A stretch of DNA of 64,000 nucleotides from Escherichia coli (GCF_016026235.1 NZ_CP065613.1); one strand, 5' to 3'. Counted from the stretch's first letter, positions 30,139-30,473 are shown. Made by a program: numbers and translations. The notes: generated by a model not told the origin, from the letters alone.

Positions 30139-30473
30139 AACTTGAGTAAGGTTATAGAATAAACATCAGCTGTATCATCATGCTGGTGCAAAGTGAGCAT
30201 TTCAGGCGTTATGCTTTCTTAATATATCCGCAATATCAGGGGGCAAACAGGAATGGAGAGCGCTCGTTTTCCATTCTTGACGCCTGATATCCCACCTAAA
30301 TTGTTTAATTCTGCCTACATTGTGCTCAATAATTAATAGGTTAGATGAAGATGGAGAAAATTTTATCTTCGGCGTGGATATTTCTTATGCTCTCTACCAT
30401 GCTCTCTGTAGACGCCAGCGCGAGCGAATGAACGTCATTTTCATGTATTAAACCCTTTGTTCGGGACAAGCGA

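Follow-up and report, generated by a model that had tools for sequence, protein, structure and literature searches.

The ymgC–pdeG spacer

We analysed the spacer between ymgC and pdeG in a 64,000-nucleotide (nt) stretch of Escherichia coli DNA (GCF_016026235.1, NZ_CP065613.1; the whole stretch is called the window), where a hairpin (30233–30290) is followed by a short open reading frame (ORF), the mini-ORF (30345–30431), both on the + strand. The gene order is bluF (− strand), ycgZ-ymgA-ariR-ymgC (+ strand), the 335-nt spacer (30139–30473), pdeG and ymgF. ymgC (29890–30138, + strand) is the final gene of the ycgZ-ymgABC operon, which is transcribed as a single polycistronic RNA (PMC3509220), and pdeG (ycgG; 30474–31997, + strand) encodes a 507-residue CSS-EAL phosphodiesterase of cyclic di-GMP (c-di-GMP; PMC5897775). 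Over 29880–30800 the sequence shares 100% identity with strain FDAARGOS_943 and about 96% with most other E. coli; no feature is annotated in the spacer in the record of that strain or in the RefSeq record of K-12 MG1655. A first-pass annotation, made from this sequence alone, had singled out the inverted repeats and the ORF as either a structured leader or a small membrane peptide linked to pdeG.

The mini-ORF ends at TGA 30429–30431 and encodes 26 residues from ATG 30351 or 28 from ATG 30345. Its translation from ATG 30351 is MEKILSSAWIFLMLSTMLSVDASASE, with lysine at the N-terminus, one predicted hydrophobic helix, ILSSAWIFLMLSTMLSV, and an acidic C-terminus. The hydrophobic frame of 26 codons at 30351–30431 is thus as first described, except that its stop ends 42 nt, not 43, ahead of the pdeG ATG; in the window strain the two are in the same frame. 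Taken alone, such an ORF is not above chance: 62 ORFs of at least 20 residues overlap 28500–32500, and an equally hydrophobic 17-residue stretch occurs in 3–5% of the 306 ATG-initiated ORFs of 20–50 residues in the window. It is the comparative data alone that make the case interesting.

These data separate the mini-ORF from the hairpin. The cryptic Escherichia clades are devoid of a 6.3-kb segment (24008–30356) that comprises bluR, bluF, ycgZ-ymgA-ariR-ymgC and the hairpin; in its place stands a yebC-like gene, in the order icd, yebC-like gene, pdeG. In BLASTN alignments of two such lineages (L004 and L005) with the window, synteny ends at 24007–24010 and resumes at 30357–30358, that is, at the third codon of the mini-ORF, from which homology continues through pdeG and ymgF. 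Because the segment is confined to E. coli and homology restarts at 30357, the hairpin segregates with ymgC and the mini-ORF with pdeG; judged by this distribution, they are two separate things rather than one unit. In a search of one genome per species, pdeG is intact outside E. coli only in the Escherichia lineages L004, L005 (E. whittamii) and L006, and damaged copies are present in two Kluyvera species. The module shared by the window (30357–32401) and L004 (3886–5926) has only 81.6% nucleotide identity, against 92–94% for the flanking core genes, which suggests that pdeG-ymgF has persisted as ancient alleles or has been exchanged as a module.

Constraint and coding potential of the mini-ORF

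The part of the spacer that travels with pdeG is a conserved block (30357–30437, + strand), the core of which is still recognisable in Kluyvera and in three further loci (L089, L090 and L095). When E. coli is compared with the cryptic clades, pdeG shows a synonymous divergence (dS) above 1, a third-position identity of 55–59% and a non-synonymous divergence (dN) of 0.06–0.07, and the block retains 81–83% identity over 78 nt with zero indels. Among 21 E. coli haplotypes, segregating sites amount to 0.080 per nt in the block, close to ymgC (0.072) and pdeG (0.087), as against 0.177 in the remaining spacer (Fisher P = 0.036). It is found in 4892 of 5426 genomes, contiguous in 99% of these, and in metagenomes the core pattern matched 79 loci, all of them Escherichia or Kluyvera georgiana-like. 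These alignments show that the block is strongly constrained and co-inherited with pdeG. The constraint gives way directly 3' of the mini-ORF stop to a poorly conserved, indel-tolerant linker (30438–30455, + strand), the indels of which leave between 39 and 42 nt separating the stop from the pdeG ATG across Escherichia. Conservation returns in the pdeG translation-initiation region (30456–30476, + strand; ..GGGACA.GC..ATG), which has a weak Shine-Dalgarno sequence. An 8-nt direct repeat, AGCGAATG, occurs both at the mini-ORF stop (30421–30428) and at the pdeG start (30469–30476); the repeat is probably due to chance, since K-12 and the cryptic clades have it only in imperfect form.

The frame and its TGA are intact in all 25 Escherichia haplotypes (about 80 sequences). 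Each also has an in-frame ATG, at shifted positions: ATC-AAG-ATG in K-12, ATG-AAG-ATG in the window, ATG-AAG-TTG in phylogroup B2 and GGC-ATG-TTG in the cryptic clades, where the sequence holding the ATG has no alignable E. coli counterpart. Replacements in the peptide are concentrated at both ends, and the core, AWIF(L/V)(M/I)LS(T/A)ML(S/F)V, remains hydrophobic; in five Escherichia variants differing by 6–9 replacements the 17-residue Kyte-Doolittle mean stays at 1.79–1.91. The segment is long enough for a membrane helix, albeit shorter and less hydrophobic than the first transmembrane helix (TM1) of PdeG (2.85). When positions are shuffled over five pairs of sequences, the mini-ORF frame, which has the most synonymous changes (15, with 27 non-synonymous changes and 0 stops), gives P = 0.06, and the other two + strand frames give P = 0.60 and 0.99. 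The ratio of non-synonymous to synonymous changes per site (pN/pS) is lowest in the mini-ORF frame in five of seven pairs (0.24–0.88); in the pair formed by the window and L005 it is 1.09, the highest of the three frames. Third positions account for 23 of the 49 changes, and the codon changes include Leu CTT/CTG/TTG and Ser TCT/TCG/AGT. Together, these codon-level figures are no more than suggestive.

Two other frames overlap the same DNA. One on the + strand (30374–30451) has a positionally conserved start, GTG (30374) in Escherichia and ATG in Kluyvera, L089 and L090; we rejected it as coding on account of its unrelated peptides of 11–25 residues and its pN/pS above 1. On the − strand, an 89-codon ORF (30341–30610) covers the mini-ORF and the start of pdeG and has its wobble positions in common with both. 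This antisense frame is open in E. coli but lacks a conserved counterpart in the cryptic clades, and the codon-periodicity signal is mirrored in it.

Outside Escherichia, the nucleotide core precedes the pdeG homologues of Kluyvera, L089, L090 and L095 (the last three from metagenome or sequencing-run assemblies) by 65–130 nt, and the upstream genes in Kluyvera, L089 and L090 are unrelated. In all of them the mini-ORF frame contains TAA or TGA just before the Trp codon. All the pdeG homologues found there, in Kluyvera genomosp. 3, K. georgiana, L089, L090 and L095, are pseudogenes as well, with their first stops at codons 267 and 101 (Kluyvera), 229 (L089), 136 (L090) and 21 (L095); the loci run from position 4001 in L007 and L009, 2501 in L089 and L090, and 1517 in L095. 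Because pdeG has decayed in each such lineage, we read the loss of the small frame as co-decay and not as counter-evidence. In Kluyvera and L090, the homologous frame reaches or overlaps the pdeG start (ATGCGTAG, TAAGAATG), which suggests that the ancestral small ORF may have been longer and translationally coupled, and was shortened in Escherichia by the TGA. The block is lacking in three more distant homologues (L092–L094; 46–49% identity).

A natural deletion also ends next to the mini-ORF. The ycgG2 allele of phylogroup B2, sequence type 131 (ST131) and neonatal meningitis E. coli strains is an N-terminally deleted pdeG that is expressed in vivo (PMC6385356, PMC10459773); the accessible text of these two papers does not mention the mini-ORF. 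Its left junction lies 5 nt past the mini-ORF stop, and the deletion removes the 5' half of pdeG (about 30437–31100 of the window; L003 4040–4100). B2/ST131 strains consequently retain the entire mini-ORF, and the EAL-only gene that follows it has as its start a TTG 68 nt downstream. We considered and rejected this deletion as proof of a promoter upstream of 30436: ycgG2 may use a start site internal to pdeG, as reported from RNA-seq, or a promoter created at the junction. As the internal site could explain its expression, ycgG2 does not fix the position of the pdeG promoter.

No exact match to the peptide exists among 15 billion proteins, and it does not occur in the examined data of the 'Cryptic Bacterial Microproteome' study. 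Profile searches returned only E. coli-derived gene calls, none of which we count as a homologue: two in-frame insertion variants, fusions to PdeG in which TGA is read as Trp, and one error-ridden assembly. One E. coli variant, P0053, carries an in-frame 12-nt tandem duplication of TCTACCATGCTC that yields ...LSTMLSTMLSV... and a 30-residue product; it shows up in the database solely because it reaches the 30-residue calling threshold. In E. coli a lone stop divides the in-frame mini-ORF from pdeG, and the public gene calls P0004, P0050 and P0058 run through it (...SASEW...MRNTLIP...); we take these to be alternative-genetic-code calls and not real proteins. A genuine read-through fusion was rejected as well: the two are in frame in E. 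coli only, the cryptic-clade spacer measures 39, 40 or 41 nt, and L006 has an in-frame TAA. A signal-peptide remnant was likewise discarded, as the cryptic clades have lost the A-S-A motif (they read ARLSE) and carry an in-frame TGA 5 codons upstream of their ATG.

A candidate small membrane peptide and its alternatives

Based on the above data, we tentatively propose, with a confidence that stops short of the balance of probability, that the mini-ORF is an unannotated gene for a small membrane peptide, the first cistron of a transcription unit with pdeG, that would act on the TM1-CSS-TM2 part of PdeG. In this proposal the mini-ORF (81–87 nt) would form the promoter-proximal part of an old pdeG module and be co-transcribed with pdeG. 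The resulting peptide of 26–28 residues, with its one hydrophobic helix, would insert into the inner membrane, where it may act on the sensor part of PdeG, an N-terminal region embedded in the membrane (TM1, the CSS domain and the second transmembrane helix, TM2). Transcription through the mini-ORF, its translation, membrane insertion and interaction with PdeG are steps that we infer, as is a role of the hairpin as RNA. The small membrane peptide envisaged in the first-pass annotation is strengthened by co-inheritance, by constraint, by an open frame with an ATG and by the hydrophobic core; it is plausible on comparative evidence of modest statistical strength. The more specific version, in which the mini-ORF would encode a dedicated single-helix partner of PdeG and the pair would descend from an ancestral two-cistron operon, is unlikely.

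KdpF, CydX, MgrB and AcrZ are small single-helix membrane proteins of E. coli, and other small membrane proteins, too, act on a larger protein encoded alongside. The mini-ORF product resembles KdpF (kdpFABC), CydX (cydABX), MgrB (with PhoQ) and AcrZ (with AcrB) in being small, with one helix preceded by a charged residue, and in having been missed by annotation. Like them, it also adjoins the gene of a membrane protein, directly upstream, and is co-inherited with it. It differs from them in its weak ribosome-binding site, in an amino-acid constraint that is only moderate, and in being known from sequence alone (for the small-protein literature, see the works cited in PMC11429745).

If that more specific version holds, no small-protein subunit or regulator would have been described before for a c-di-GMP phosphodiesterase with a CSS domain. 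A conserved small membrane peptide would in itself be a new entry in the E. coli small proteome and a handle on the control of PdeG. pdeG encodes a poorly understood c-di-GMP enzyme, which extraintestinal pathogenic E. coli lineages have remodelled by a deletion 5 bases past the mini-ORF; if the peptide is a PdeG partner, B2/ST131 strains would keep an orphan peptide after losing the membrane domain of PdeG.

Several observations weigh against a translated mini-ORF. With Escherichia pairs only, the codon signal falls to P = 0.18, and the antisense frame that uses the same wobble positions scores equally well (14 synonymous, 25 non-synonymous, 0 stops; P = 0.06). There is no recognisable ribosome-binding site: pairing with the anti-Shine-Dalgarno sequence yields only −3.1 kcal/mol (E. 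coli) or −1.7 kcal/mol (cryptic clades), compared with −5.8 to −6.5 kcal/mol for ycgZ, ariR and ymgC, and the E. coli start codon lies within a small local hairpin. The mini-ORF is not listed in the available supplement of a ribosome-profiling study of small ORFs (Stringer et al. 2021), nor in RefSeq K-12; this absence is weak evidence, because ycgG expression is described as almost undetectable in K-12 (PMC10459773). The K-12 paralogues pdeB, pdeC, pdeD and pdeN are preceded only by unrelated chance ORFs. In addition, O157:H7 carries in mid-helix an insertion derived from an end of IS629. Finally, a −10-like hexamer is present at the edge of the block in three lineages; if it is used, transcription would start inside the mini-ORF.

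The insertion just mentioned is 48 nt long and is present in E. coli O157:H7 4276 and strain Tx1686 at 30396/30397, in the most conserved part of the mini-ORF core (H43, NZ_CP017442.1 3053382–3053534; L096 1001–1129). Of its 48 nt, 45 are identical to the end of the insertion sequence (IS) IS629/IS1203 (IS3 family), and it is in frame, giving MEKILSSAWIFLMLSMNRPGFPGECFICELTTMLSVDASASE. In strain JCH767 (H29) the match stops at the same site, which suggests that some strains carry a full IS copy there.

The −10-like hexamer leads to the strongest competing explanation, a real contender though on balance doubtful, in which the block is a non-coding control region of pdeG with its −10 element at the left edge and a 5' untranslated leader or operator in the remainder, the open frame being a by-product of T-rich constrained sequence. 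In our position-weight-matrix scoring of −35 and −10 elements, the hexamer is GAAAAT in the window (30356–30361, + strand) and CAAAAT at the same position in a cryptic clade and in Kluyvera, and interlineage homology starts exactly there. Each lineage has its own −35-like hexamer 15–19 nt upstream, in non-homologous DNA: TTAATA in E. coli, TTGAAC in L004 and TTTTCC in Kluyvera, with a TG extension. In Kluyvera, the intrinsic terminator of the upstream gene lies about 45 nt before the block, and therefore the promoter must lie in or after it. The weak Shine-Dalgarno sequence of the mini-ORF, and a codon signal that is non-significant in Escherichia alone and mirrored in antisense, also favour a control region, as does the general experience that conserved upstream blocks are far more often regulatory than coding. 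However, the promoter scores are modest (4–8 bits), a consensus scan of the + strand finds no promoter, and an even, indel-free constraint over about 80 nt is long for a promoter or operator. A consensus fold of 10 lineages, moreover, reaches only −4.3 kcal/mol with 11 scattered pairs and reveals no conserved RNA structure. A control region also leaves unexplained the in-frame ATG in all Escherichia lineages, including the non-alignable one, the excess of third-position changes, and a linker that starts right past the stop. Even if the block proves to be a non-coding leader, it would still mark the region that holds clues to the pdeG promoter and its regulator.

Published data on the promoter are sparse. 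The accessible supplements of Cappable-seq, SMRT-Cappable-seq and in vitro run-off RNA-seq (ROSE) studies contain no mapped pdeG start, and those of term-seq studies contain no 3' ends for the spacer. The sole published prediction with a sequence, TTGACG-19-TATTTT, comes from a genomic SELEX peak of RpoD, in a study that also places an H-NS site in the ymgC>ycgG spacer (PMC3946193). Its −35 element (TTGACG, 30277–30282, + strand) falls in the 3' arm of the hairpin, and the corresponding −10 position reads TGTTTA in the window strain (30302–30307). One further paper refers to a 'putative' pdeG start and, in a figure legend, to a 'predicted sigma 54 promoter'. We rejected a sigma-54 promoter in the block: against the required TGGCAC-N5-TTGC the block has TGGATATTTCTTATGC, with the GG-GC spacing one base too long, and in the alignment the cryptic clades, Kluyvera and L089 either lack the GC element or have it displaced.

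An alternative that we regard as improbable keeps translation and dispenses with the peptide: the mini-ORF would be a cis-acting upstream ORF, the act of translating it setting pdeG translation or guarding the leader from Rho. It does end only 39–42 nt before pdeG, whose own ribosome-binding site is weak. The frames of Kluyvera and L090, which reach or overlap the pdeG start, have the layout of translational coupling, and distant CSS-EAL homologues also have short upstream ORFs (in L092 with a TAATG overlap). Yet upstream ORFs of this size arise by chance before the paralogues, and in Escherichia a stop about 40 nt from the start, at a distance that varies by indels, is poorly suited to coupling. 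No structure connects the mini-ORF to the pdeG ribosome-binding site, and a purely positional ORF would not need a conserved hydrophobic core.

The mini-ORF shares with the leader and monitoring peptides tnaC, mgtL, pheL, SecM and MifM the position of a short ORF ahead of a potentially controlled gene, and SecM and MifM carry hydrophobic targeting segments. It differs from all of these in having no downstream terminator or anti-terminator, no conserved structure at the pdeG ribosome-binding site, no run of regulatory codons and no arrest motif. Monitoring of membrane insertion during translation is implausible, because a 26-residue peptide is still in the ribosome tunnel at termination. It is very improbable that hairpin and mini-ORF form one attenuator-like structured leader of pdeG, the other possibility raised in the first-pass annotation. 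Both features do lie near each other in one spacer, the published −35 prediction falls inside the hairpin (PMC3946193), and read-through from ymgC would place both on one RNA. But no lineage outside E. coli in which the block and pdeG persist has the hairpin, a distribution that already largely refutes the idea, and it is the most polymorphic part of the spacer within E. coli (0.24 segregating sites per nt). We found no terminator-like site in 29700–30700, no pairing that links the hairpin with the ORF region as an alternative fold, and no Rfam 15 match in 28700–31000 (two chance snoRNA hits were far below gathering scores); the mini-ORF itself contains neither consecutive regulatory codons nor a known arrest motif.

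Scarcely credible, lastly, is a functionless chance ORF in drifting intergenic DNA: such size and hydrophobicity are common by chance and the locus is silent in laboratory strains (PMC10459773), but the block is 81–83% identical, with no indel, while the synonymous sites of pdeG are saturated, and it is under half as polymorphic as the remaining spacer.

The hairpin downstream of ymgC

The hairpin (30233–30290, + strand) is a single-copy element made of an outer 8-bp stem, an interior loop and an inner 14-bp stem. The outer arms, ATATCAGG (30233–30240) and CCTGATAT (30283–30290), pair perfectly over 8 bp; the inner stem (30248–30261 with 30266–30279) has 14 pairs, 3 of them G-U, around a loop at 30262–30265. 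The nested inverted repeats that first drew attention to the spacer are thereby borne out, apart from a claimed ninth base of the outer arms, which is unpaired. In folding, the check suggested with them, the minimum free energy is −29.3 kcal/mol, against −15.4 ± 2.8 kcal/mol for shuffled sequences (z −4.9), and 0 of 200 shuffles folds as well. The fold thus exceeds chance. The commoner K-12-type allele (3246 genomes in the 80–90% identity band) is 4 nt shorter and forms a perfect 25-bp stem of −44.5 kcal/mol (z −12.2), of which the window allele is a degenerate version.

The hairpin is found in 4951 of 5426 complete E. coli genomes, at a median of one place per genome, and the window contains no second copy. 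Beyond E. coli chromosomes it occurs only in 14 plasmid-collection records, all of E. coli and all typed as non-mobilizable, 2 of which are chromosome-sized (about 4.9 Mb) and may be mislabelled chromosome. The long stem is kept in all 10 hairpin haplotypes, with the inner helix paired in every one. The changes at its five variable pairs are one-sided, among G-U, G-C and A-U, and preserve pairing of the + strand RNA. The + strand also gives the more stable fold in 8 of the 10 haplotypes, with an advantage of 0.6 to 9.1 kcal/mol over the − strand. Selection on the RNA is thereby suggested but not demonstrated, because the 10 haplotypes contain no double compensatory changes and no covariation in excess of shuffles. 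Conservation in related genomes, proposed in the first-pass annotation as a test, accordingly holds for the mini-ORF block, kept in the cryptic Escherichia clades, and not for the hairpin, which is restricted to E. coli and has no compensatory covariation.

We conclude that the hairpin probably belongs, as a 3' RNA structure, to the ycgZ-ymgABC transcript. There it would form a stem in the 3' untranslated region that serves stabilisation or processing, and it would mark the end of the ycgZ-ymgABC unit ahead of pdeG; its place on the ymgC side would define the boundary between the blue-light operon and the pdeG unit. In form it resembles the lambda sib and REP-type 3' stems, being a long stem that follows an operon's final gene and lacks a U tract. 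The likeness is in form only: unlike REP stems, the hairpin is single-copy and has no similarity to repeated elements, for which reasons we rejected an assignment to the REP/BIME, ERIC or MITE families. The K-12 allele, with its 25 perfect pairs and preserved + strand pairing, is also long enough to resemble the stems cut by RNase III, which needs about 20 bp or more of contiguous duplex; the window allele offers 14 + 8 bp separated by an interior loop. Two observations count against a 3'-end role. The published term-seq tables contain no + strand 3' end at the hairpin, in conditions in which the operon is poorly expressed, and no U tract follows the stem. An intrinsic terminator was rejected for the latter reason, the stem being followed by CCCACCTAAATTG, and the terminator scan was empty.

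The same published term-seq tables contain antisense RNA 3' ends within pdeG (K-12 1218619–1218730, − strand), about 220–110 nt ahead of the pdeG 3' end and roughly at 31770–31880 of the window. One antisense 3' end inside pdeG is in a term-seq table that apparently compares treatment conditions.

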